Source: Candidatus Shapirobacteria bacterium
Lineage (GTDB): Bacteria; Patescibacteriota; Microgenomatia; VGLL01
Assembly (NCBI GenBank): GCA_016866735.1
Contig: VGLL01000001.1
Span: 1-60,671, forward strand
Reading direction: 5' to 3'
Length of the DNA stretch: 60,671 nt
Part shown: in pieces, positions 27,437-60,560 of the stretch
How the letters are laid out: each line of letters starts with the position of its first letter
Position numbering within the stretch: position 1 is the stretch's first letter
Notes under the pieces: model-generated
Database searches by the model: none
Told to the model about the DNA's origin: nothing
Seen by the model: only the letters and a program-made list of their open reading frames with translations
Made by a program: the position numbers and the translations under genes

Positions 27437-27733
27437 ATGGCAATAAGCGCACAGTGGCAAGACGTAAAATTTAAAGTCGGCGACACGATTAAGATTCAGC
27501 ACCGCATTAAAGAGGGCGGCAAAGAAAGACTAGTCGCCTTTTTGGGAGTGGTGATTGCCATCAAGGGAAGAGGGGAAAACAAGATGTTTACCGCCAGGAG
27601 AATGGGCGCGCAGGGCGTCTGGGTTGAGCAGATTTTCCCCCTCTCGTTGCCGTTAATTGCCAAAATCGAGGTGAAAAAGAAGGCGACCAAAGTAAGAAGG
27701 GCCAAGCTTTACTACTTAAGAAAGACCTCTTGA
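27437..27733 (+). CDS. rplS: 50S ribosomal protein L19
   Basis: FKVGDTIKIQHRIKEGGKERLVAFLGVVIAIKGRG...KVRRAKLYYLR. The ATG at 27437 is preferred over the TTG at 27413 used in the track. Confidence 0.88.
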   Translation: MAISAQWQDVKFKVGDTIKIQHRIKEGGKERLVAFLGVVIAIKGRGENKMFTARRMGAQGVWVEQIFPLSLPLIAKIEVKKKATKVRRAKLYYLRKTS

Positions 27734-28092
27734 TGGGGAAATTAAGCGTTGGGAAATTCGGCGAAGGGCTGGCGGCCGAATTTTTGGCCCAAAAAGGCTA
27801 CCAAATCATTGAGCGGAATTTTAGAAAAAGATACGGAGAAATTGACCTCGTGGCCCGGGAGGGCAAGACCCTGGTTTTTATCGAGGTAAAAACAAGATTA
27901 ACAGACAAATACGGCCTGCCCGAAGAAGCGATAACTCCGTGGAAGCTGAAAGCTTTGGTCAGATCCGCTAATTATTATAAAATGCTTCATCCGGAACTGC
28001 CTGAACTTTTGCGGATTGACCTAGTGGCTATAGACTACGTGAATTCTTCCGATCACCCCGAAATCAGGCTAATAAAAAATATAAGTGGTTAA
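27730..28092 (+). CDS. yraN: YraN-family (UPF0102) endonuclease-like protein
   Basis: GEGLAAEFLAQKGYQIIERNFRKRYGEIDLVAREGKTLVFIEVKTR is the YraN signature. Confidence 0.85.
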   Translation: MMGKLSVGKFGEGLAAEFLAQKGYQIIERNFRKRYGEIDLVAREGKTLVFIEVKTRLTDKYGLPEEAITPWKLKALVRSANYYKMLHPELPELLRIDLVAIDYVNSSDHPEIRLIKNISG

Positions 28093-28918: not shown

Positions 28919-29173
28919 ATGCCAGATTTTAAGGTTGGAGTGATTACCCACTACTACGATAAAATTGGGGTAGCTGTCCTTGAGTTATCTGACGAACTTG
29001 CCGCGGGTGACACTATAAAGATTTCCGGCCACGGTCGGGAATTTACCCAGGTGGTCGCCTCAATGCAGGTTGAGCACGAACAAATCCAGTCGGCCAAGCG
29101 AGGCCAAACGGTGGGCATGAAGATTGACCAGGAAGCGAAGGAGGGCGACGAGGTTTATAAAGTTACTGCCTGA
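28919..29173 (+). CDS. small EF-Tu-domain-2-like beta-barrel protein
   Basis: VITHYYDKIGVAVLELSDELAAGDTIKISGHGREFTQVVASMQVEHEQIQSAKRGQTVGMKI resembles the family usually annotated as translation elongation factor-like. Confidence 0.45.
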   Translation: MPDFKVGVITHYYDKIGVAVLELSDELAAGDTIKISGHGREFTQVVASMQVEHEQIQSAKRGQTVGMKIDQEAKEGDEVYKVTA

Positions 29174-29547
29174 TGATGGAGTGGTTTCCGGCTGACGATA
29201 TTAGAAACGAGATAATTTTTCTCTTGCAAAAACTGGGCTTTTCCCACATAGATCCGGCCAGGATATTTTGCTTCCGCTCTACCGGCTCAAAGTCCAAAGC
29301 CAGGGCAAGAATTTGGTCCTTACCGCGCATTTGGCAAAAAGCCCTGGCTGTCCCGCCCGGGTATTGTATCGAAATTATTGCGGAGAGGTTTGATCATTTG
29401 CCAGCGGAAGATAAGAAAAAAATTTTAATTCACGAACTATTACATATTCCGAGGAATTTTTCCGGCAGTTTGCTTTCCCACCGCGGAAAGTACCACTCAA
29501 TTAACACCAAGGTGGTGGAGATTCTTTGGCAAAAAATACAATGCTAG
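29173..29547 (+). CDS. putative HExxH zinc metallopeptidase-like protein
   Basis: ILIHELLHIP is an HExxH motif. The protein is small (124 aa) and translationally coupled to the upstream gene. Confidence 0.4.
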   Translation: MMEWFPADDIRNEIIFLLQKLGFSHIDPARIFCFRSTGSKSKARARIWSLPRIWQKALAVPPGYCIEIIAERFDHLPAEDKKKILIHELLHIPRNFSGSLLSHRGKYHSINTKVVEILWQKIQC

Positions 29548-35243: not shown

Positions 35244-37018
35244 ATGAGAGAAGCATATTGCGGCGAATCCAAATCTACCTTTAAATCCAGTTTTCTGCCT
35301 TCACCTCTGGCTGAAAAAGTTCTCAGAGAAGGCCGTATCATAGGTGCCTCCGAGACACCTCAAATGATGATCAAAAGGATGGTCGAAGCGCTTTTTGTCC
35401 CCGAAACCTGCTTTGGGACCTCCACCGCCGAAATCCAGCGGTTAATCGAAGACTTCGGATTTTTTTTAGATGGAAAGTACTGCGTGATGAGTACGCCTGT
35501 CATGACAAATGCAGGCCGATATACAGATAGACCGTTATCTGCATGCGCTGTTCCGCCGCTTGATCTTCGAGGAGATCTCCGAAAAGTGAAACAAGTTGTT
35601 GATGAATTTCATCAAGCTGGTATGGGTACCGGCTTTAACCTTAATGATACCGAAAACCCAGTTGAGATTCTCGGATTTCTTAACGGTGTGGCCGTCGATG
35701 GTGCCAATAGCGGAAAGGAAAATCGTCCTGTTGGTAACATGGCAATTTTAAGTATCCACCACCCTCGCATCTTAGAGTTCATTGAGACGAAGGTTGGATC
35801 AGATGAGCGAGGAGAAAATTGGAAGTTTAATATCTCTATTGATGTAAGTCCAGAATTTATGTGTGCCGTTGGGGTAGGAGAGCATTATAGGCTAAGTGAT
35901 GGTACTTACCTAAATGCACGAGAAGTAATGTACCGCATTGCAGAAAGTGCTGTTGCCTGTGGAGACCCCGGATTGGTCTTTCTTGACCGTTTTGATAGAG
36001 ATAATCCCACGCCTGGGGTTGGAGCATATGTGGGCTAGCTCCTTGCGCAGAAGTGGGGCTCGTGGCTGGCGAATCATGCCAATTTGGGTATATCAACGTT
36101 GGTAAGTTTGTTGATCCGTTATCTGGTATTAACTATAGCCAGCTTGAAAAATTAATAAGATTAATGACTCGTGTTCTTGATAACGCTCTCGAATTTAGTA
36201 TTGAACATTACGCCCACCCACTTAATCAACAAGTAATGAGAGCAAAACGAAAAATCGGAGTAGGTATTTGCGGACTAGCTGATATGTTACTTCAACTTAG
36301 GTTACCATATAGCGATCTAAGATCAAGGAGAGTTGCGAAAGATGTTATAGCTTTCATTAACTACGTGTCCAAACTTGAATCTCATGAGCTTGCAAAACAA
36401 AGAGGCTCATTTGGGGCGATGGGCTTCGTTTCGGGTTGTCGATACAACGACAACCCTGGTTTTCTTGAGGAAAAATATGGATCTCTTGAAACAAGAACCG
36501 TTACTCCTATTATGTGGAGGGACCTTGCCTCTAAAATACGAGATACTCGGCTATTAAGAAATGCATCTACTGTTGCTCTACCCCCAACGGGAAGAAGTGG
36601 ACTCGTGATTGATGCATCTACAGGAATAGAGCCGATATTCTCGTTAGTTGGATACGGAGGAGAAATTAATCCATATCTTAAGCGAGAACTCGATAAAAGA
36701 CGGCTGCTTAACGAAGCTTTATGCCGACAAATTTTTGGACTCGGTCGTGTGGGAAGTATGGGAGGGGTTCCTCATGACATCAAAGCCGTCTATCAAACTG
36801 CGCTTGAGATAGAGCCGCAAGAACACCTTCTCATGGCTGGTGAAATTGAGAAAGCAGTTGACGAATCAATCGCGAAAACAGTAAATATACCAGGCGCATC
36901 AACTACCGACGATGTTGTGAAAATCTATCTTCAGGCGTATAAATTGCGTCTTAAGGGTATCACTATTTTTAGAACAGGAAGTAGAAAGATCCAGCCAAGA
37001 AAATTGGCAAATCTATGA
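35244..37018 (+). pseudogene. nrdJ: class II (adenosylcobalamin-type) ribonucleotide reductase interrupted by one frameshift near 36035
   Basis: ORF 35244-36038 ends ...GDPGLVFLDRFDRDNPTPGVGAYVG*. The frame shifted by -1 continues ..LAPCAEVGLVAGESCQFGYINV (the NPCGE..ESCNLGSINL active-site region) to 37018. Other RNR motifs are MSTPVMTNAG, LSACAV and HHPRILEFIETK. Confidence 0.75.
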
Positions 37019-39148: not shown

Positions 39149-39895
39149 TTACGGAAATATCTTCAGTCCGTAGTTTAAGAAATCTTTGCTATTAGGTCTT
39201 CGGTGAAGCTTTTTTTGAACAATGGCAAATGCCTTATTCTCAGCCCCACTATTTAGCACCCACTTTCCTAAAGGGTAGGCGACTAGGTCAGCTATTTGCA
39301 TACCGGCAATGTTCTGCATTTTCTGACTAAACGAAAGATCGGCTAACTTTCTTTGAACTTCGGCGGCAGTAATATAACGGTGGTTATTTTCTTTAAATTT
39401 TTCATAAATCTTCGCTAATTTCTGATCGTTATGAGTTTCTCGCGATTCTATTTTTAACATCATTTTCTCTCTGGAGGCCCCAAGGTACATAACGGCACGC
39501 TCTAGTATAAACTGAAAACATAAGTGGTAGGGATTATCTGGAGCAGAATATTGGTTTTTGAGCTTATTCTTTTCGATGGCGGCTGAAATTACTTTAAATT
39601 CGAGTCTTTTAACAAGATTATCTAGGGCCTGGTAGAATTCTTCCCTTCTCTTTCTATCTACCAGACAGGCAAAATCACTCTTCTGCTTGCGAATATCATA
39701 AGAGCGGAGAATGAGATTGTTTTTGCCAAAAAAGCATATTTTCAACTCATTGACTTGTTTTTCTGCCTTTTCGAAGTAATAATCAAAATCGAAAATACAA
39801 CCAGCAAGAACAAACATAGGATAAGATTGATCAATCTTATCTAGACTGTGATCTCCTGACTCGTCAAGAAACATTATTTTCATCTGTGGCATCAC
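39149..39895 (-). CDS. DUF3800-family protein
   Basis: The N-terminus KIMFLDESGDHSL...MFVLAGCIF carries the characteristic DUF3800 D-E-S-G start. The gene is isolated on the minus strand between the rsmI pseudogene and uvrB. Confidence 0.6.
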   Translation of the reverse strand: MMPQMKIMFLDESGDHSLDKIDQSYPMFVLAGCIFDFDYYFEKAEKQVNELKICFFGKNNLILRSYDIRKQKSDFACLVDRKRREEFYQALDNLVKRLEFKVISAAIEKNKLKNQYSAPDNPYHLCFQFILERAVMYLGASREKMMLKIESRETHNDQKLAKIYEKFKENNHRYITAAEVQRKLADLSFSQKMQNIAGMQIADLVAYPLGKWVLNSGAENKAFAIVQKKLHRRPNSKDFLNYGLKIFP

Positions 39896-45994: not shown

Positions 45995-48025
45995 ATGGGG
46001 AACATATTAGATAATTTAAAAACTTTGCTCCAAAAAGACGAACGGTTAGTGAGCGAAGGTGAGCTTTTGAAGAATAAAATAATTGAACTTGTTCTGAAGC
46101 TGGATAAAGACCTCATTAAACTCCTTTTATCTGATAAAAGAATGCGGGGGGTATTTTTTCTTGAAATTGACGGGGTGCTTATTTTTGATAAAGACAAGTT
46201 TATTAAATTTGTTTCTAGTAAGGATTTTCTGCCGGATTCTTATACTGCTTTCAAGAATAAGATTGGCTTAACTATTGGTGATGAATTTCTTAGCGAGAAA
46301 AAAGAAGTCGTACTTTCTTGGCCGTATAAGGATTGTGTCTTGGAAGGTGGGATGACTAAAGAGGACCAAAAGCGGGACGAAGTTTTTTGGAATCAAACCC
46401 TAGCGCCCGATGAAATCAGCCGCCTTTTAGATTCAAAAGTTTTTACCAATGCCAGAAGAATTGACGTTAAAGGTGAACATGAACCGGATAAATTCAAAAC
46501 TGATGAGAAAGGCGACATTAAAGACAATCTTATTATCAAGGGCAATAATCTTTTAGCTCTCTACTCCCTCAAAAAACGCTTCGCCGGAAAAGTAAAACTC
46601 ATCTACATCGACCCGCCATACAACCGTGAAGATGAGAATTTCTACAACGATAGTTTTAGGCATTCTACATGGTTGATTTTTATGAAAAATAGGATAGAAA
46701 TAGCCAGAAAATTATTGAACAATGATGGTGTCATTTTTGTGCAAATTGACTTTAGGGAATTGGCATATTTAAAAGTTTTAATGGATGAGGTTTTTGATAG
46801 AAAAAATTTTATTGGACAAATCAACTGGCAAAGAGTGCCAGAGGGGAGGACACTACTTGGTCAAGGGGAAAGTGACTTAAAGATCTCAACAGAATATCTT
46901 TTAGTTTATGCCAGAGACAAAAAGCCCGACATTTTAAATAGCAGTGTTAAGAAATTGATTGATGCCACTGAGAAGATAATTCAACAATATTCCTATGTCC
47001 TTAAGACAAATTCTAAACCAATAGAGGTAAAAAGACTTAAAGATAGTAAGGGCAGAGACGTTATTTTTTATAAAGTCCAAGATTTTGAGTTGCGACCATT
47101 GCGAGATAAAAGTATAGAAAATTATATTAGAAATTATGAAAATATGGTACAGTCTGTTGGTATACAAGAGGAAAGTACTTTCCAACAAAGACTTCTTTTT
47201 GAGACTAAAAAGATAGATACTCTGTGTATAGTGGAGTATGTTCCCGCTAAAGGAAAAAGAAAGGGGGAGAAATTGAGAGATTATTTTATTAAGGATAGGA
47301 AGTTGTTATTTGCAAAAGAATTTTCTGTTTTTAAAAATGAAAGACTATATAGAGAGGGCGATATTAATGACTTTTGGAGCAATAGTGAAATCCAAGTTAC
47401 AGATATTGCTGGAGAGGGTGCAGTGTCCCTGCGAAGAGGGAAAAAGCCCGAAGAACTATTACGTCGAGTTATAGATTGGACAACGTATAAAGATGAGATT
47501 GTTCTAGATTTCTTTATGGGCACCGGAACTACTTGCGCTGTGGCTCACAAAATGGGTCGGCAATATATTGGAGTTGAGCAGCTAGACTACGGGGAAAATG
47601 GCGCAGGGGTAAGATTAAAAAATGTCATCAACGGTGACCAAACCGGTATTTCAAAATCCGTTGGCTGGAAAGGTGGCGGGGATTTTGTTTATTTAGAACT
47701 GATGAAATGGAATGAAAATTTTGTCGGGAAAATCCAGCAAGCAAAAACGAAAGATGAATTAAAAAAGTTATGGGAGGCGATGAAAGAACGGGCGTTTTTG
47801 AGTTATAAAGTTGATGTTAAAGCGATTGATGCACAGGCTCCCGCCTCCGCTAAAGCTACGGCGGGCAAGGAAGATTTTGCGGATTTATCGCTTGAAGACC
47901 AAAAAAGATTTTTACTGGAGTGTTTAGATAAAAACCATCTCTATGTCAATTACAGCGAAATTGAGGATGAAGAGTATGGAGTGAGCGAAGAAGATAAAAG
48001 TTTAAATAGGGATTTTTATTTATGA
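45995..48025 (+). CDS. mod: type III restriction-modification system methyltransferase (Mod, N6-adenine, beta-class motif order)
   Basis: LIYIDPPYN (motif IV) precedes FFMGTGTTCAVAHKMGRQYIGVE (motif I). The N-terminus LLQKDERLVSEGELLKNKI is typical of Mod proteins. A res gene lies downstream. Confidence 0.88.
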   Translation: MGNILDNLKTLLQKDERLVSEGELLKNKIIELVLKLDKDLIKLLLSDKRMRGVFFLEIDGVLIFDKDKFIKFVSSKDFLPDSYTAFKNKIGLTIGDEFLSEKKEVVLSWPYKDCVLEGGMTKEDQKRDEVFWNQTLAPDEISRLLDSKVFTNARRIDVKGEHEPDKFKTDEKGDIKDNLIIKGNNLLALYSLKKRFAGKVKLIYIDPPYNREDENFYNDSFRHSTWLIFMKNRIEIARKLLNNDGVIFVQIDFRELAYLKVLMDEVFDRKNFIGQINWQRVPEGRTLLGQGESDLKISTEYLLVYARDKKPDILNSSVKKLIDATEKIIQQYSYVLKTNSKPIEVKRLKDSKGRDVIFYKVQDFELRPLRDKSIENYIRNYENMVQSVGIQEESTFQQRLLFETKKIDTLCIVEYVPAKGKRKGEKLRDYFIKDRKLLFAKEFSVFKNERLYREGDINDFWSNSEIQVTDIAGEGAVSLRRGKKPEELLRRVIDWTTYKDEIVLDFFMGTGTTCAVAHKMGRQYIGVEQLDYGENGAGVRLKNVINGDQTGISKSVGWKGGGDFVYLELMKWNENFVGKIQQAKTKDELKKLWEAMKERAFLSYKVDVKAIDAQAPASAKATAGKEDFADLSLEDQKRFLLECLDKNHLYVNYSEIEDEEYGVSEEDKSLNRDFYL

Positions 48026-48720
48026 ATGAAATTATAAAATCTCTACATGAGATAGTTGCCGTATTGAAAGATCCTAAAGACTTTTGGGTAAATATAACTT
48101 TAGCAATATCTACTTTTATAGCGGTAATAGTAGCTTTATTTCAGGAAAAAATAAAAAAACATTGGAATAAAGCTACATTAGATCTAAGAATAGACTTAAA
48201 TCCTCCTGATTGCCATCAAATTTCGTTAATAGACCTTCGTACGGGAAAGTTTGTGGGTCAATCTATTTACATTAGGATAAAAGTTATTCACAGAAAAGGA
48301 GGGGCCGGCGAGAATGTTGAAATTATGCCGATTAACTTTTTCCGCATTAAAGGTGATGGGAAACTGGAAAAGTTAAAACATTTTTTACCAATAAGTTTGG
48401 CCTGGAGTCATTTTCAGCCGCGTACGAATCTTAGTCGTATTCCCGTTAATTTATTTAGACATTGCGATTTTGGACACTTTGTTAAGGATCTAAAAGATAA
48501 CAATAAAGCCGTTTTAATTTTAGATACCATGGTGCAACCTAATCCGGTGGCAGAAAGCGAAGTTCCAAACATTATTAAACCAGGAAAATATCAGTTTGAA
48601 TTATTACTTAGTGGCGATAATGTTAAGCCTATTAAAAAGGAATGGAAGCTAGAATTTGATAAATGGAGCGAGGATGAAAAAGAAATGCTAACCAAAAATA
48701 TTAGCATAGAAGAAATTTGA
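48022..48720 (+). CDS. uncharacterised single-pass membrane protein, translationally coupled to mod
   Basis: The ATG overlaps the mod stop (ATGA). It has one TM segment (WVNITLAISTFIAVIVALF). No motif was recognised in the 180-aa C-terminal domain. Confidence 0.55.
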   Translation: MNEIIKSLHEIVAVLKDPKDFWVNITLAISTFIAVIVALFQEKIKKHWNKATLDLRIDLNPPDCHQISLIDLRTGKFVGQSIYIRIKVIHRKGGAGENVEIMPINFFRIKGDGKLEKLKHFLPISLAWSHFQPRTNLSRIPVNLFRHCDFGHFVKDLKDNNKAVLILDTMVQPNPVAESEVPNIIKPGKYQFELLLSGDNVKPIKKEWKLEFDKWSEDEKEMLTKNISIEEI

Positions 48721-48742
48721 TTTTTTCTTATTAATGGATGGT

Positions 48743-48768
48743 ATGCTCTACGAAACTTTTAATTCAAT
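48743..48768 (+). repeat. copy 1 of a 26-nt direct repeat identical to the first 26 nt of res (25/26 match)
   Basis: ATGCTCTACGAAACTTTTAATTCAAT is followed directly by the ATG of the next ORF. It forms the mini-ORF MLYETFNSI*, whose TGA overlaps that ATG. Confidence 0.9.
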
Positions 48769-49020
48769 ATGAAAGACAAGAAGATACAAACTCCAACTAA
48801 AATTGCCATTTTCAGAGGCAGAAGAGTGCGGAGAACTATTTATAAAGATGAATGGTGGTTTTCTGTCAGCGACATTATTGAAGCTTTAACCGGTACAGAT
48901 AGACCGAGAAAATATTGGCATGATCTTAAGAAAAAGCTCATCGACGAAAGGTATTCCGAGGTGTCCGAAAAAATCGGACAGTTGAAATTACAATTTAACT
49001 ATGCTCTACGAAACTCTTAA
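48769..49020 (+). CDS. BRO-N-like DNA-binding domain protein (possibly truncated)
   Basis: IAIFRGRRVRRTIYKDEWWFSVSDIIEALTG fits the Bro-N pattern (f.g..vR.....ge.wF.a.Dv..aLg). The last 6 codons are supplied by repeat copy 2. Confidence 0.45.
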   Translation: MKDKKIQTPTKIAIFRGRRVRRTIYKDEWWFSVSDIIEALTGTDRPRKYWHDLKKKLIDERYSEVSEKIGQLKLQFNYALRNS

Positions 49021-49026
49021 CTAAAT
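49001..49026 (+). repeat. copy 2 of the 26-nt res-5' repeat (23/26 match to copy 1)
   Basis: ATGCTCTACGAAACTCTTAACTAAAT is followed directly by the ATG of the KTSC ORF. It forms the mini-ORF MLYETLN*. Confidence 0.9.
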
Positions 49027-49239
49027 ATGCACAGAATTCCCGTAACTTCATCGAATATTCGCTCAATTGGCTACGATCCGGAATCGCAAATTTTGAAGGT
49101 GGAGTTCAATTCAGGAGAAGTTTATCAATATTTCGATGTTCCCGAGCATCTTTATCAAGAGCTTATGAAAGCCTCATCGCCTGGACGTTTTTTGAATGAT
49201 TATATTAAATATAGTTATCGTTACCAAAAAATTACTTAG
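49027..49239 (+). CDS. KTSC domain protein
   Basis: VTSSNIRSIGYDPESQILKVEFNSGEVYQYFDVPEHLYQELMKASSPGRFLNDYIK is the KTSC signature (s.i..igYd.....L.v.F..G..Y.Y..VP...y..l..a.S.G.yfn..Ik). Confidence 0.75.
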   Translation: MHRIPVTSSNIRSIGYDPESQILKVEFNSGEVYQYFDVPEHLYQELMKASSPGRFLNDYIKYSYRYQKIT

Positions 49240-49242
49240 TGT

Positions 49243-50028
49243 ATGTTTAGTCCCAAAACTGAAAAAATAAAAAAGATCACCGAAAGAAACCAAGAGGCAG
49301 TCGAACGATTAGAAAAGCTTCTTGGAAACTCTACGAGAGTTTATATTGATTACGCCAATGTGCGACCGTGGAGCACAAAACTGCACTGGCACATTGACCT
49401 TAGGCGGCTAAAACAGTTTTTGGATTCTTTTGACACAGTGGGAGCGGTAAGTTTTTACGGTGGCTATATCAAGGGTGACGAACGATCGGAGAGAGAAATA
49501 AAGCAGGTTGAAGATCTGGCATATATTGTGCGGACTAAGCCAGTGAAATTTTTGCGATTTTCCATCAACGCTTCTAGCATTTCGGCAGATTCTACTGCCT
49601 TACTAAAACCATTTATCCGGCGAGCCCTGTTACGAAAGTATGAGGTCTCCACTATCGAATATCTCAACGAACGTTTTGCTGATATGAACAAGAAGGGAGA
49701 ATATTACATTGAAGACAGAAAATGCAATTTTGATGTTGAGATTAGTACCGATATGCTTCTTGATTCTGAACGCAAAAATGGGGAGATTTTTGTTTTATGG
49801 AGTGGCGATAGCGATTTTGCGGAGCCTGTAAAGAAGTTATTGGAGGCAGGCAGAAAGGTGGTATTATGCGCAACGGCGGGGAAAATTTCCAGCGAGCTTA
49901 ATACTCTAAGAGTAAAAGGACTAGAAGTATTTGATATCTTTCACATTAAGGACTTAATTTGCTGGAACAGGGAAATAAATAAAAGGTTAGATAAAAGCAC
50001 AAAGGACTCCGTTTCCGGAGCCCCTTAG
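49243..50028 (+). CDS. NYN-domain (LabA/DUF88-like PIN-fold) putative RNase
   Basis: VYIDYANV at the N-terminus, CNFDVEISTDML and VLWSGDSDFAEPVKKLLEAGRKVVL match the NYN acidic motifs. It starts 3 nt after the KTSC stop. Confidence 0.65.
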   Translation: MFSPKTEKIKKITERNQEAVERLEKLLGNSTRVYIDYANVRPWSTKLHWHIDLRRLKQFLDSFDTVGAVSFYGGYIKGDERSEREIKQVEDLAYIVRTKPVKFLRFSINASSISADSTALLKPFIRRALLRKYEVSTIEYLNERFADMNKKGEYYIEDRKCNFDVEISTDMLLDSERKNGEIFVLWSGDSDFAEPVKKLLEAGRKVVLCATAGKISSELNTLRVKGLEVFDIFHIKDLICWNREINKRLDKSTKDSVSGAP

Positions 50029-50098
50029 CACTAGAGTTAGTGATCTTTCGATCAAGGCAAAGTATAGCGCAAAGAAGACAAAAGTCAAGGATCAATTT

Positions 50099-50124
50099 AT
50101 GCTCTACGAAATTTTTAATTCAAT
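50099..50124 (+). repeat. copy 3 (the resident copy) of the 26-nt repeat, equal to codons 1-9 of res
   Basis: ATGCTCTACGAAATTTTTAATTCAAT was read directly. Confidence 0.9.
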
Positions 50125-52705
50125 TAAGGATTCATTTGGAGCGGATTATTTTACCTCGCGAGTTAGTAATGAAATAGTCCAAAATCTCAATCCAAAGTTT
50201 GAACTGCGAGAATATCAAAAAGAAGCGCTAGGAAGATTCGATTTTTATTTTAATGGCTACCAAAAAAGAAAATTTCCAGCGCAATTACTTTTCCATATGG
50301 CCACCGGTAGTGGCAAGACGCTGATTATGGCCGCCAATATTTTGTCTCTCTACAAACTTGGCTACCGCAACTTCATCTTTTTTGTCAATAGTGTAAATAT
50401 TATTGAAAAAACGCGAGATAATTTTTTAAATCCCCTATCGGAAAAATATCTTTTCTCTCCTACCATTAGGTTTGGCGAAAAACAAATTGAGATTAGAGAA
50501 GGCAAAAATTTTGCGGCCGCAAGCCCCGAAGATATAAATATTCTTTTTACCACAATTCAGGGATTGCATGTTCGCTTGAATTACCCTAAGGAAGATGCTC
50601 TAACCTACGAAGATTTTGCCGACAAAGAAATTATTTTAATTTCTGATGAAGCCCACCACTTGCAGACAATAACAAAAGGCAATAGGGAAGAAATCGAATT
50701 AGAAAAAAGCTGGGAGCATACAGTTGAACGTGTCTTTAGAAGTAATTTTAAAAATATTTTATTGGAGTTTACGGCCACAATTGATTTGGGTAATGAAAAT
50801 ATAAGGCAGAAATACGAAGACAAAATTATCTTTCAATACGACTTAAAGCAGTTCAGGTTAGATAAATACTCAAAAGAAATAGAAGTTTTGCAGGCAGACT
50901 TAGAACCGGTTGACCGGGCCTTACAGGCGGTTATTTTAAGCCAGTATCGCCGCAAGATAGCTGAAAAATACAAGTTGCGCTTAAAGCCGGTACTACTTTT
51001 CAAGTCCAAAAGCATTAAAGAATCAAAAGAAAATTATGATGATTTTTTGGAAAAGATGAAAAACTTGAAGTCAAGCGACTTGCAGGAAATATGTTCCCGA
51101 TCCCAAGGAACAGATATAGAAAAGGCATTTAATTATCTTAAAAAAGAAGACATAACTTTTGACAATTTTATTAAAGAATTACAAGAGGATTTTGCTGAAG
51201 AAAAATGTATGCTTTTGGATTCAGAACATGTAGATGAAGAAAAACAATTAAAACTCAATTCCCTGGAGAACAAAAACAACGAGATAAGGGCAATATTTGC
51301 GGTTAATATGTTAAATGAAGGGTGGGATGTGCTAAATCTTTTTGATATCGTCCGGCTCTATGACACACGCGACGGCAAATACGTTCATGGTAAATATAAG
51401 CCGGGCAACACGACAATGGGAGAAGCCCAACTTATTGGTAGAGGAGCAAGATATTTTCCATTCCAATTAGATGAAGTTCAGGATAAATATAAAAGAAAAT
51501 TTGATGAGGATGCCGAGAATGAATTGCGAGCAGTAGAAACATTATATTATCACAGCGCCCATAACCCCGATTATATTAGTGAGATAAAAAGTGCCCTGAC
51601 GGAAATAGGAATTTTGCCAGAAAAGTATTCTCAATTAGAAATGAAAATTAAAGATGATTTCAAGAAAACGGATTTTTGGAAAGACGGAGTGATTTTTATA
51701 AATGATAGAATAGCGAACCCAAGAACAGAAATTTTTAGTTTAGAAGACGCAAAAGTTGAGCGAAGCTACGCGCATAAATTAAAAACAGGAGAGATAAGAG
51801 AAAAGGTTATTCTAGACGAAGATGAAGAGATTAAGCCAAGAGACGTTGTGCGTAGTAAAATGAAATATAAACTTTCTGATTTCGGAGAAAATATAGTTAG
51901 AAGTGCTTTAGACAAGCTTGAGTTCTATCGATTTGAGACACTAAGAGAATATTTTCCCCACATAAGGTCGGTGAAAGAGTTTATTGCCTCTAATAATTAT
52001 TTAGGTGGAATTGAGATAGAGGTTTCTGGGCCAAAAGATAAACTGAATAAACTACTACCGATTGAGAAATTGGAAATGGCTTTATTTGTAGTTAGAAATG
52101 TAGCGGAAAAGGCAAGGATTAATACCTCGGATTTTGTAGGAACTAATCTATTTAAGGCGAGGTTGTTGCGGCAAGTTTTCAAAGATAAAAAAATCAAAAT
52201 AGACATCGATGAAGTGAAGAACCAAAAATTAGAGAATGTTAATTTGGTCGAGAAAGATTGGTATGCTCAAAATGAATTTTATGGCACGGATGAGGAGCAA
52301 AATTTCATCAACTTCCTCGATGGATTTATAGAGAAATTGAGACAAAAATATTCAGATATGGCCTTACTTCGCAATGAAAAATTTTTTCAAGTTTTTGACT
52401 TTAGTGAAGGTAGAGCGTTTGAGCCGGATTTTTTGATGTTATTAAAGAGAAGAAACCACAAAATTAGTATTTACCAGATTTTTATTGAGCCGAAGGGAGA
52501 TCTATTTAAAGATGGCCAAGGCAGATTTGAAAATTCAAAAGAGGGATGGAAGCAAAAATTTTTGCTTGAGGCGGAAAAACGAGTAAAGATTGACCTAAAA
52601 CTTGAAAGCAAAAACTTTAAACTCATCGGGTTGCCTTTTTACAATGAAAAACTGAAAAGAGAATTTGAAGAAGCTCTTGAAAATAAAATTTTATCTGATC
52701 TGTGA
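50099..52705 (+). CDS. res: type III restriction enzyme Res subunit (SF2 helicase plus C-terminal PD-(D/E)xK nuclease)
   Basis: HMATGSGKT (motif I), LISDEAHH (DEAH), TATI, NMLNEGWDV and a C-terminal FEPDFLML...IFIEPKG nuclease motif. Confidence 0.88.
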   Translation: MLYEIFNSIKDSFGADYFTSRVSNEIVQNLNPKFELREYQKEALGRFDFYFNGYQKRKFPAQLLFHMATGSGKTLIMAANILSLYKLGYRNFIFFVNSVNIIEKTRDNFLNPLSEKYLFSPTIRFGEKQIEIREGKNFAAASPEDINILFTTIQGLHVRLNYPKEDALTYEDFADKEIILISDEAHHLQTITKGNREEIELEKSWEHTVERVFRSNFKNILLEFTATIDLGNENIRQKYEDKIIFQYDLKQFRLDKYSKEIEVLQADLEPVDRALQAVILSQYRRKIAEKYKLRLKPVLLFKSKSIKESKENYDDFLEKMKNLKSSDLQEICSRSQGTDIEKAFNYLKKEDITFDNFIKELQEDFAEEKCMLLDSEHVDEEKQLKLNSLENKNNEIRAIFAVNMLNEGWDVLNLFDIVRLYDTRDGKYVHGKYKPGNTTMGEAQLIGRGARYFPFQLDEVQDKYKRKFDEDAENELRAVETLYYHSAHNPDYISEIKSALTEIGILPEKYSQLEMKIKDDFKKTDFWKDGVIFINDRIANPRTEIFSLEDAKVERSYAHKLKTGEIREKVILDEDEEIKPRDVVRSKMKYKLSDFGENIVRSALDKLEFYRFETLREYFPHIRSVKEFIASNNYLGGIEIEVSGPKDKLNKLLPIEKLEMALFVVRNVAEKARINTSDFVGTNLFKARLLRQVFKDKKIKIDIDEVKNQKLENVNLVEKDWYAQNEFYGTDEEQNFINFLDGFIEKLRQKYSDMALLRNEKFFQVFDFSEGRAFEPDFLMLLKRRNHKISIYQIFIEPKGDLFKDGQGRFENSKEGWKQKFLLEAEKRVKIDLKLESKNFKLIGLPFYNEKLKREFEEALENKILSDL

Positions 52706-56244: not shown

Positions 56245-56646
56245 GTGAAATCAATAATCCGCTCACTCGCGATTAATTTTTTTACCATTTGGTTTTTTAG
56301 CCAAGTATACCCCGGGGTTAAAATTGAGGGCGGTTACCTAACTATTTTCTGGGCGGCCGTTGCCTTTGGCCTGCTTAACCTCATCGTCAGACCAGTCTTG
56401 AGCCTGCTGCTTTTGCCCATTAACCTTCTTACCTTAGGCGCATTCCGTTTCGTCATCGGGGTAATTATTCTTTTTCTTCTCGCCGTTATTGTACCCGGCT
56501 TTTCCCTGCAATCCTTTTCCTTCGGCGGGTTTTCCAATAGCGGCATTGTTCTTCCCGCCGCCCATATCTCTCTCCTCTGGTCTTATGTCATCGGATCGTT
56601 TATAATTAGCATCATCAACTCTTTTATCGTATGGCTTTTACAATAA
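56245..56646 (+). CDS. YvlD/DUF360 (phage holin family 4-like) membrane protein
   Basis: Four TM segments, with GLLNLIVRPVLSLLLLPINLLTLGAFRFVIGVIILFL, the typical LPi..lTLGlF signature. Confidence 0.65.
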   Translation: MKSIIRSLAINFFTIWFFSQVYPGVKIEGGYLTIFWAAVAFGLLNLIVRPVLSLLLLPINLLTLGAFRFVIGVIILFLLAVIVPGFSLQSFSFGGFSNSGIVLPAAHISLLWSYVIGSFIISIINSFIVWLLQ

Positions 56647-59553: not shown

Positions 59554-59679
59554 GCCTTTTACGGCAACCCCAGGATCTAGTCGGTATTATAACACAGTCT
59601 TATAGTCTTGTCAAGTCCCGCGTTATGGGTTGGCTTGAATCTTTGTTTGGCTCTTGTTATACTCATAACTAGTAAGCTT

Positions 59680-59761
59680 GCCAGGGTGGTGAAACTGGTA
59701 GACACGCTAGGTTTAGGACCTAGTGCCGTAAGGCTTGCAGGTCCGAGTCCTGTCCCTGGCA
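59680..59761 (+). tRNA. tRNA-Leu (anticodon TAG), class II with a long variable arm
   Basis: GCCAGGG-TG-GTGAAACTGGTAGACACG-CTAGG-TTTAGGA-CCTAG-TGCCGTAAGGCT-TGCAGG-TCCGAGT-CCTGT-CCCTGGC-A. Confidence 0.9.
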
Positions 59762-59763
59762 CA

Positions 59764-60021
59764 GTGTATTTTCTCTATATTTTAAGAAGTCTTAAGGACG
59801 GAAAGCTGTATATTGGCGTTACGAATAACATAGATAAGCGCCTTAAGCAGCATAATAATGGAAACACAAAATCCACTAAATTTCGCAGACCATTTATTTT
59901 GCTGTATAAAGAGTCCTTCAGTACGAGGAGTGAGGCAATGAAAAGGGAGTGGCATTTTAAGAATACTGGGGAAGGAAATAAGTTAATGAGGGTGCTTATT
60001 GATGACGCAAAATTCGCTTAA
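59764..60021 (+). CDS. small GIY-YIG nuclease-superfamily protein (YhbQ/UPF0213-like)
   Basis: VYFLYILRSLKDGKLYIGVTNNIDKRLKQHNNG...SRSEAMKREWHFK. The GTG start lies 2 nt after the tRNA-Leu 3' end. The upstream part of the track ORF overlaps the tRNA and was rejected. Confidence 0.75.
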   Translation: MYFLYILRSLKDGKLYIGVTNNIDKRLKQHNNGNTKSTKFRRPFILLYKESFSTRSEAMKREWHFKNTGEGNKLMRVLIDDAKFA

Positions 60022-60146: not shown

Positions 60147-60560
60147 ATGATTAAATGTCAGAAGCAAATGATGGGAGATTCAAGCATAGCTAATTACTGG
60201 AAAAATAGCGCAACCGATGCCCTTGATACAGCTGATAAGCTTTTTGCGTCTAAAAAGTATCATCACTCTTTATTTTTTCTTCATTTAGCAGTAGAAAAAT
60301 TACTCAAAGCGATTTATGTTCAACGTAAAAACGAAGCGGCGCCCGTTGGTCATGATTTAATACGACTGGCCGAAAAGGCAAAAATTGCACTAGACGAAAA
60401 AATGATGCGCGAGTTGGCAGAGATTTCTACTTTTAATGTTGCTGCCCGATATGATGATTATAAATTTAAGTTCTATAAGAAGGCTACCTACGAATTTACT
60501 CTCAAGTGGCAGGAAATTGGCAAGCGCTTATTTAAACAATTTTCATTATTAAATCCATGA
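60147..60560 (+). CDS. HEPN domain protein (toxin-like partner of the downstream nucleotidyltransferase)
   Basis: HHSLFFLHLAVEKLLKAIYV....GHDLIRLAEKA matches the HEPN (PF05168-type) helices. Its stop overlaps the next ATG. Confidence 0.7.
   Translation: MIKCQKQMMGDSSIANYWKNSATDALDTADKLFASKKYHHSLFFLHLAVEKLLKAIYVQRKNEAAPVGHDLIRLAEKAKIALDEKMMRELAEISTFNVAARYDDYKFKFYKKATYEFTLKWQEIGKRLFKQFSLLNP

Follow-up and report, generated by a model that had tools for sequence, protein, structure and literature searches.

Why does the beginning of a restriction gene occur three times within a single operon? We examined this question in a 60,671-nt stretch of a Candidatus Shapirobacteria genome (GenBank assembly GCA_016866735.1, contig VGLL01000001.1, positions 1 to 60,671, forward strand), referred to here as the window. 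It carries a Type III restriction-modification (R-M) operon in which the methyltransferase gene mod (45995-48025) and the restriction gene res (50099-52705) are separated by a slot filled with other genes, the cassettes. Short copies of the res start, here called stubs, lie between these cassettes. Comparison with related operons suggests that the stubs are probably scars left by the joining of two mod-X-res units (X being a cassette), in which the upstream res was lost except for its head, and that the contents of the slot are swapped by homologous recombination.

A search allowing up to three mismatches found the 26-mer ATGCTCTACGAAACTTTTAATTCAAT at only three positions in the 60.7-kb window, all on the + strand: 48743 (no mismatch), 49001 (three mismatches) and 50099 (one mismatch). 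Zero copies were expected by chance, as judged from shuffled sequences. A preliminary description of the locus, made from the letters alone, had reported these three copies, and its account of their coding context was confirmed. The copy at 50099 is the genuine start of res and opens the 868-aa Res protein (translation MLYEIFNSIKDSFG). The copy at 48743 (stub 1, 26-30 nt) forms a mini open reading frame (ORF), MLYETFNSI* (48743-48772), whose TGA overlaps the ATG at 48769. The copy at 49001 (stub 2, 26 nt) encodes MLYETLN*, with a stop 2 nt before the ATG at 49027, and the Bro-N-like ORF that starts at 48769 ends within it (48769-49020, 83 aa). Stub 1 equals the commonest res head of the family, whose consensus N-terminus is MLYETFNSIK. 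A CAATTT said to precede copies 2 and 3 alike proved to be out of register, lying at -10 to -5 before copy 2 and at -6 to -1 before copy 3. The TTTAACT ahead of copy 2 is the usual junction between a cassette stop and the res ATG in many relatives; this junction motif (CAATTTAACT) and stub 2 together span 48991-49026. The final ~10 nt of stub 2 resemble a mod tail (e.g. that of L013; related loci are cited by L numbers) as much as they resemble res, and could equally be a mod-tail remnant.

The Res family was 71-82% identical throughout; relatives at 75-82% identity numbered in the hundreds and came from metagenome-assembled genomes (MAGs) of many phyla, labelled as Patescibacteria, Omnitrophota, Nitrospirota, Desantisbacteria, Ignavibacteria and others, and also as Pacearchaeota (L018). 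Such identity over distant lineages would imply either a very recent spread of the operon or mis-binning. The locus set comprised 115 loci, 35 from genomes and 80 from metagenomes. Among relatives, nucleotide conservation of mod ended directly past ...GATTTTTAT (EFY), and the conserved part of the mod-tail alignment closed with ...GAATTTTAT. Conservation was back a few bases before the res ATG, with identity beginning within 0-9 nt of it. Where both genes were present (94 loci), the res ATG lay 11-13 nt from the conserved mod end in eight loci, which represent an empty slot, and 560-4390 nt from it in the rest. Both the empty sites and the alternative cassettes that the preliminary description had proposed to look for were thus present. 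Across the 115 loci, + strand ORFs of 62 unrelated families, most of them of defence type, filled the slots, including RhuM/Fic, AAA_13, Abi_C, Schlafen AlbA_2, AAA_14/DUF4143, D12 methylase, OLD-type ATPases, SMODS/AGS_C, AIPR, AbiEii and NYN. Since mod is conserved up to its tail and res from its ATG, the interval between them is a hypervariable cassette slot in a conserved mobile operon. A special nucleotide constraint on the res head was also considered and is not claimed: third-position identity over codons 1-9 was high (0.76 vs 0.58) but ranked second of 507 windows and is thus not unique.

Stubs were sought in all 115 loci as matches with up to three mismatches to any real res 26-mer. 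This search returned 34 extra res heads, every one on the + strand (0 on the - strand) and, with few exceptions, located between mod and res. After removal of near-duplicates, 71 distinct complete slots remained, and ORFs of at least 60 aa were counted in each. No stub was present in the seven slots without such an ORF. Only two of the 43 single-ORF slots held one, in both cases directly after mod, while stubs were seen in 13 of the 21 multi-ORF slots (association with multi-ORF slots, Fisher p=1.8e-6). Three-unit slots, namely those of the window, L103 and L125, held two stubs. Multi-ORF slots without a stub mostly contained fixed gene pairs (e.g. AbiEi/AbiEii) or remnants below the search length, and res-head remnants of at most 10 nt were visible by eye in L017, L018 and L087. 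An apparent depletion of stubs shorter than 26 nt was dropped, since detection needed the first 26 nt. The upstream cassette usually stopped 2-11 nt before the stub (19-22 nt in the case of ORF232, the first cassette of the window, and 31 nt in L104), a spacing much like that of res in single-cassette loci.

These results bear on the proposal that insertions had occurred repeatedly just inside res. Material has indeed been added repeatedly, the copies delimit cassettes and an intact res always lies downstream; no single point of insertion was found. In the window the 26-mer was confined to the res head and the stubs, and the scars recurred across the loci of the family.

Two further arrangements of res heads were observed. 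In L101 (at 4626) and L102 (at 5963), a 30-nt res-head stub lies 3' of a complete res (which ends at 5832 in L102), after a 26-aa ORF and before frr. The position of this stub, past res and before the chromosomal frr, indicates that a decapitated res also marks the right edge of the island in these two loci. In L065 (and also L066 and L091), a 57-nt stub at 1731 is followed 171 nt on, at 1902, by a second, decayed res head (6 mismatches) in front of an NYN cassette. The second head may be the trace of a lost middle cassette.

The make-up of the scars was resolved by comparing the stubs with a profile of res 5' ends. Stub lengths were 26-30, 26, 28, 30, 30, 32, 33, 38 and 42 nt, with longer ones at 50-52, 54, 55, 57, 75 and 79 nt. 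This overall range of 26-79 nt speaks against the fixed insertion point that had been proposed. Several stubs ran directly into mod sequence. Once in L084 and twice in L125, the stub continued into the last 62-76 nt of mod, followed by the mod stop and the next cassette, and in L033, L071 and L076 it continued into the last ~330 nt of mod. In a class of stubs of ~51 nt, the res frame (...GAT TAT) passed into an apparent variable mod tail after ...TTT TAT, and this tail ran for 0-6 codons to a stop followed by the cassette ATG. The presence of mod 3' fragments joined to stubs indicates that two mod-X-res units were fused, rather than that a free cassette was inserted. In L071 and L076, moreover, the mod fragment stands directly before res; the right-hand unit holds no cassette, and cassette insertion was therefore not what took place there. 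Together, these findings show the stub to be the head of a former res from the left-hand unit, joined to a right-hand unit with its own res; the start of that right-hand unit falls somewhere from the final third of its mod up to its cassette.

The stubs were also no closer to the res head of their own locus than to other alleles: a median of 37% of other heads were at least as similar. The L065 stub was 67% identical to its own res head and 91% identical to another allele, and the stubs of L065, L084 and L086 were far closer to foreign res alleles. Target-site duplication, the other mechanism proposed at the outset, does not account for this pattern.

Larger remnants of the two genes differed in kind. 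In the loci examined, no res fragment longer than 80 nt was found outside the main res, and extra mod pieces up to full length were present in L017 and L071. Tandem mod pairs before one cassette and one res were seen at L017 540-4354 and L071 1476-4484, with only ~10 nt of res-head-like sequence between the two mod genes of L017. Additional copies of mod were kept whole; additional copies of res never were.

Blocks of near-identity between loci showed where recombination had taken place. Between L087 and L088, mod was 96% identical up to +17 nt and res 99.9% identical from -5 nt, and the cassettes differed. L068 and L078 showed the same pattern, with near-identical flanks around different cassettes, and mobility genes were absent from both pairs. 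Among the internal ends of matches of at least 93% identity, 23 of 41 were no more than 30 nt away from either the mod tail or the res ATG. Other breakpoints fell at stubs. L024 (mod-stub-F8-res) and L138 (F20-stub-F8-res) show no relationship upstream, and from 5 nt ahead of the stub they match at 96-99%. For L008 and L105, identity is 98-99% across two upstream genes as far as the stub and 50-70% beyond it. Since identity blocks begin and end at stubs, mod tails and res starts, these edges also act as crossover points. Stub length followed the downstream rather than the upstream cassette: it was 50-55 nt before RhuM behind seven different left neighbours, and 30 or 38 nt before F8. Either the stub travels with the cassette on its right, or that cassette constrains the position of the joint.

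Within mod, blocks of near-identity started ~308-320 nt before its end in four pairs of loci (L002/L068, L023/L134, L072/L074 and L090/L094), at the border of the variable middle and the conserved C-terminus of Mod. Breakpoints at this border suggest recognition-domain swapping. The mod fragment after 42-nt stubs starts at the same border, at aa 570 (L033 9102-9310, L071 5249-5536).

What the scars are composed of, that they accompany stacking, that they come from different res alleles and where the mosaic breakpoints lie was directly observed, as were joints of a res head to a mod tail or a cassette leader. From these observations we infer how the recombination worked enzymatically, in what order events took place and what part, if any, the scars play in expression. 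Cassettes would usually be swapped when the conserved flanks, mod and res, undergo ordinary homologous recombination. Two R-M units may also meet in one cell after horizontal transfer, and loaded units mod-X-res and mod-Y-res would then occasionally be joined head to tail. Such joining would lose nearly all of the upstream res together with part or all of the downstream mod; only the res head, 26-79 nt long and in some cases trailed by 0-330 nt of mod tail, would persist at the joint. This could come about through a homologous anchor in res or mod combined with an illegitimate joint near the border of homology (homology-facilitated illegitimate recombination), or through integration in tandem, after which the inner res and mod were deleted; neither route would involve a dedicated recombinase. 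Possibly only short leftovers are stable, since a cassette between long direct repeats would be deleted again, and extra Res fragments are seemingly not tolerated. Once formed, a stub would offer a short patch of res homology open to later exchanges.

Applied to the window, the proposed mechanism would read the order as ORF232, stub, truncated Bro-N gene, stub, KTSC-NYN and intact res. Its history may have begun with ORF232-res, to which a Bro-N unit and then a KTSC-NYN unit were added, most of the Bro-N gene being lost later or simultaneously. The scars alone give no polarity as to the newest cassette.

Several observations weigh against the joining of units. Both stubs of the window stop after exactly 26 nt, abut an ATG and show no recognisable mod tail, and the window locus alone looks more site-specific than the family does. 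The ~51-nt stub class was found only in front of RhuM cassettes; instead of many random events, it could reflect a single ancient joint passed down with the cassette, or a joint position that is preferred. Sequence shared between mod tails and res heads was in no excess over shuffles (p=0.72). Among six loci fetched from the 14 contigs that carry an identical ORF232 (JGI and Logan assemblies, several samples), no source-population variant missing a cassette, and no polymorphic intermediate, was found. The source samples are JGI 3300020084, 3300020221 and 3300020222 and SRR7990334, SRR7979708 and SRR7979709.

These observations were weighed against other explanations of the repeats. If an integrase captured circular cassettes at the res start, each regenerating the res head, as in integron attI/attC recombination or tandem att integration, cassettes would be flanked by direct repeats, as they are here; that both window stubs end at nt 26 before an ATG, and that identity blocks start at stubs, would also fit. 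Such capture is nonetheless very improbable given the variable stub length, the mod 3' fragments attached to stubs and the derivation of stubs from different res alleles. The check for a recombinase elsewhere on the contig found none among window ORFs of at least 110 aa, and the called genes of the related loci L036-L047 contained none. Folding of the RNA around the three copies gave no significant hairpin (z-scores -1.5 to +0.4), and inverted repeats were absent at the copies, with none of note in the window. EcoP15I-type Type III enzymes cleave ~25-27 bp from their site. The 26-nt length of the window copies resembles this distance. Target-site duplication was considered, arising either from a transposon or from repair of staggered ends that the Type III enzyme might itself have produced. 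With lengths that are not constant, copies flanking a cassette that are not copies of each other, neither a transposase nor terminal repeats in the window, and mod tails at the joints left unexplained, this origin is just as hard to credit. The preliminary description was accordingly wrong in its mechanism (a fixed site and target duplication) and right in its core idea, that the repeats delimit cassettes placed just within res.

An assembly artefact or chance similarity is the least credible explanation. Metagenome assemblies can join strains at shared k-mers, but the same three copies and layout were present in all six of the fetched loci, which excludes an assembly accident; the layout recurred over several samples and assemblers, the same type of scar occurred in dozens of unrelated MAGs and metagenomes, and chance predicts no copies at all. 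A more serious contender is that stubs are kept for a function, either as leader mini-ORFs for termination-reinitiation or as portable homology arms of a recombinase-free cassette array. The stops of the window stub ORFs lie at -4 and +2 nt relative to the next ATG, and no obvious Shine-Dalgarno motif accompanies the downstream starts. More widely, the stub ORF stop lay within 5 nt of the next start in 9 of 22 tabulated stubs and 8 of 20 junction classes, the res frame of the ~51-nt class continues to the stop codon of the apparent mod tail, and breakpoints coincide with stubs. Many stubs are decaying, however: L014 has ATT in place of the ATG, and stop codons come early in L003, L042, L103 and L125. 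No RNA structure or promoter signal accompanied them, a scan of the operon for promoters and terminators returned no more than chance, and the KTSC gene could couple to the truncated Bro-N ORF without stub 2. Retention for function is on balance rather unlikely, although translational coupling through stub mini-ORFs is plausible as a secondary use of scars formed by joining. A bolder version, which we offer only tentatively, would make the res head and the mod tail portable homology arms and the slot a recombinase-free, integron-like array: any loaded operon could donate cassettes by RecA-type recombination, stub mini-ORFs would couple the stacked genes, and the operon would spread defence genes between phyla.

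The enzyme encoded by the window is readily classified. Mod matched N6_N4_Mtase (PF01555, 2.7e-40) and TypeIII_RM_meth (PF12564, 7.5e-23) in Pfam and MTase_III in PADLOC (1.1e-190), and with the mod-tail alignment its gene defines the left conserved edge of the slot. Res, a ResIII/DEAD protein (PF04851, 1.4e-28), matched PADLOC REase_III (4e-133) over residues 30-864, and its gene forms the right conserved edge. Both subunits of a Type III operon are therefore present, with res 3' of mod on the same strand. The two genes are not directly adjacent, since 2074 nt and four ORFs intervene; this separation is a variation in layout and does not call the enzyme type into question. The block from 45995 to 52705 is co-oriented on the + strand, has a G+C content of ~0.31-0.43 (mostly ~0.35) compared with ~0.45 in the flanks, and is placed between uvrA and a transglutaminase/uvrC region.

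The window cassettes are nested between mod and res in the same orientation. ORF232 (48022-48720), whose start overlaps the mod stop, encodes 232 aa with a likely N-terminal membrane helix and had no Pfam or PADLOC match. A homologue 75% identical occupied the same slot position in L042-L047, with a decayed stub after each. Members of this family were also seen outside R-M operons (L048, L051-L058), in contexts resembling defence islands and always after a conserved 144-aa ORF; their neighbours included AbiEii, MazE, Abi_alpha, a 290-aa Bro-N protein and a serine recombinase. ORF232 is a candidate defence gene with no known domain.

The second cassette, the Bro-N/DinD-like ORF at 48769-49020, matched residues 4-71 of the 286-residue PADLOC model PDC-S13 and covered residues 5-68 of the 290-aa L051 protein by BLASTP. 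It is a remnant, representing only the N-terminal quarter of proteins of ~290 aa. Its closest homologues were followed for the same joint of stub and cassette, and all lay beside other R-M systems or elsewhere, none in the slot. Short Bro-N-like ORFs number in the hundreds in genomes of the candidate phyla radiation (CPR), and among the matches listed were 64-144 aa long and 62-80% identical to that of the window. Among L139-L151, several were followed by a separate ORF of ~186 aa, and some lay close to small GIY-YIG ORFs or alongside other R-M systems. The pattern looks like that of a DinD-like gene frequently found in split or truncated form.

The third cassette (49027-50028) consists of a KTSC ORF (49027-49239; Pfam 1.6e-27) and an NYN-domain nuclease-like ORF (49243-50028; Pfam 1.5e-13, PADLOC NYN and HEC-09). 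Scans of viral contigs, looking for NYN-protein relatives and for the res-head pattern, found neither. A 70-nt spacer with an AAGGA Shine-Dalgarno-like motif follows (50029-50098), unusually long compared with 2-10 nt in relatives. The 3' end of the NYN ORF, preceding this spacer, contains a 12-bp G+C-rich hairpin (50000-50027) that scored as a terminator only on the - strand. In the slots as a whole, defence-associated domain matches comprised PDC-S13, HEC-09/NYN, RhuM/Fic, Abi_C, OLD, SMODS, AIPR and AbiEii; ORF232 and several other slot ORFs had no domain match.

Elsewhere in the window, a ribonucleotide reductase barrel domain is split across ORFs 35244-36038 and 36053-37018 (profile positions 53-202 and 226-522), for which a frameshift, a split gene and an intervening element are candidate causes. 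Small ORFs are scattered among the housekeeping genes at 27730-28092, 29173-29547, 39149-39895 (- strand), 56245-56646, 59608-60021 and 60147-60560, with NERD/UPF0102, phage-type metallopeptidase, DUF3800, holin-like, GIY-YIG and HEPN domains.

Embedded genes now guide the discovery of anti-phage systems, a field that has yet to settle how such genes enter. The scars provide, for a single Type III R-M family of high mobility, a readable record in which replacement is the rule, stacking would occur by fusion of loaded operons, and the upstream res is always lost except for its head. A single R-M backbone carries ~60 cargo families across bacterial phyla, CPR included, and in at least one MAG labelled archaeal. 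Stubs of gene heads and gene tails between embedded genes may also serve as a sequence signature of cassette boundaries and of candidate defence genes in other operons.

The layout resembles what has been described as guilt by embedding, in which defence genes lie within Hma, BREX, DISARM and Type I R-M systems, 96.7% of them in the same orientation (Payne et al., bioRxiv 10.1101/2024.01.29.577857). Its authors state that the significance and origin of embedding are still to be explored (bioRxiv 10.1101/2024.01.29.577857), and prrC in EcoprrI is a further example of an embedded gene (PMC12707154). As in that study, unrelated defence-type genes are nested here between R-M genes in the same orientation, and the window cassettes match its candidate models PDC-S13, PDC-S04 and HEC-09; the study covered no Type III systems and reports no scars (bioRxiv 10.1101/2024.01.29.577857). 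Our literature search turned up no earlier account of either a Type III mod-res slot or scars composed of res heads and mod tails, which is not proof of absence.

Integron cassettes likewise form a promoter-poor array in one orientation with short repeats between genes. In contrast, the slot has no adjacent IntI, no attC-type hairpin and no fixed crossover, the position of the joint varying over 26-79 nt, and its repeats are pieces of a neighbouring coding gene. The variable length of the repeats, their derivation from different alleles and the lack of a transposase or terminal repeats similarly set them apart from transposon target-site duplications. The minimal mobile elements of Neisseria, as far as they are mentioned in two papers (PMC1797815, PMC3787668), are alike in having alternative cassettes at one site, conserved flanks, no mobility genes of their own and flanking homologous recombination, features also seen in the pairs L087/L088 and L068/L078. 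They differ in that the flanks here are a horizontally mobile operon found across phyla, and stacking with gene-head scars does not appear in the description given in those mentions.

The closest mechanistic parallel appears to be the sequential displacement by which orphan-module arrays arise at type VI secretion system (T6SS) effector-immunity, Rhs and contact-dependent inhibition (CDI) loci (PMC5361080). Homology-facilitated illegitimate recombination is documented (PMC3240628) and was invoked for the T6SS arrays (PMC5361080). In those loci as in the slot, a conserved anchor gene stands beside a variable module, and old modules are kept and shifted; new modules enter there by a homologous side and an illegitimate joint, as they may in the slot. 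Fragments of conserved or displaced genes mark the boundaries, and replacement is commoner than stacking. The slot differs in that both of its sides are conserved, mod and res being the anchors, and in that its modules are unrelated defence-type genes rather than toxin or immunity domains. Its scars, too, are distinctive: they are made of the downstream anchor's 5' heads, some of them joined to 3' tails of the upstream anchor.

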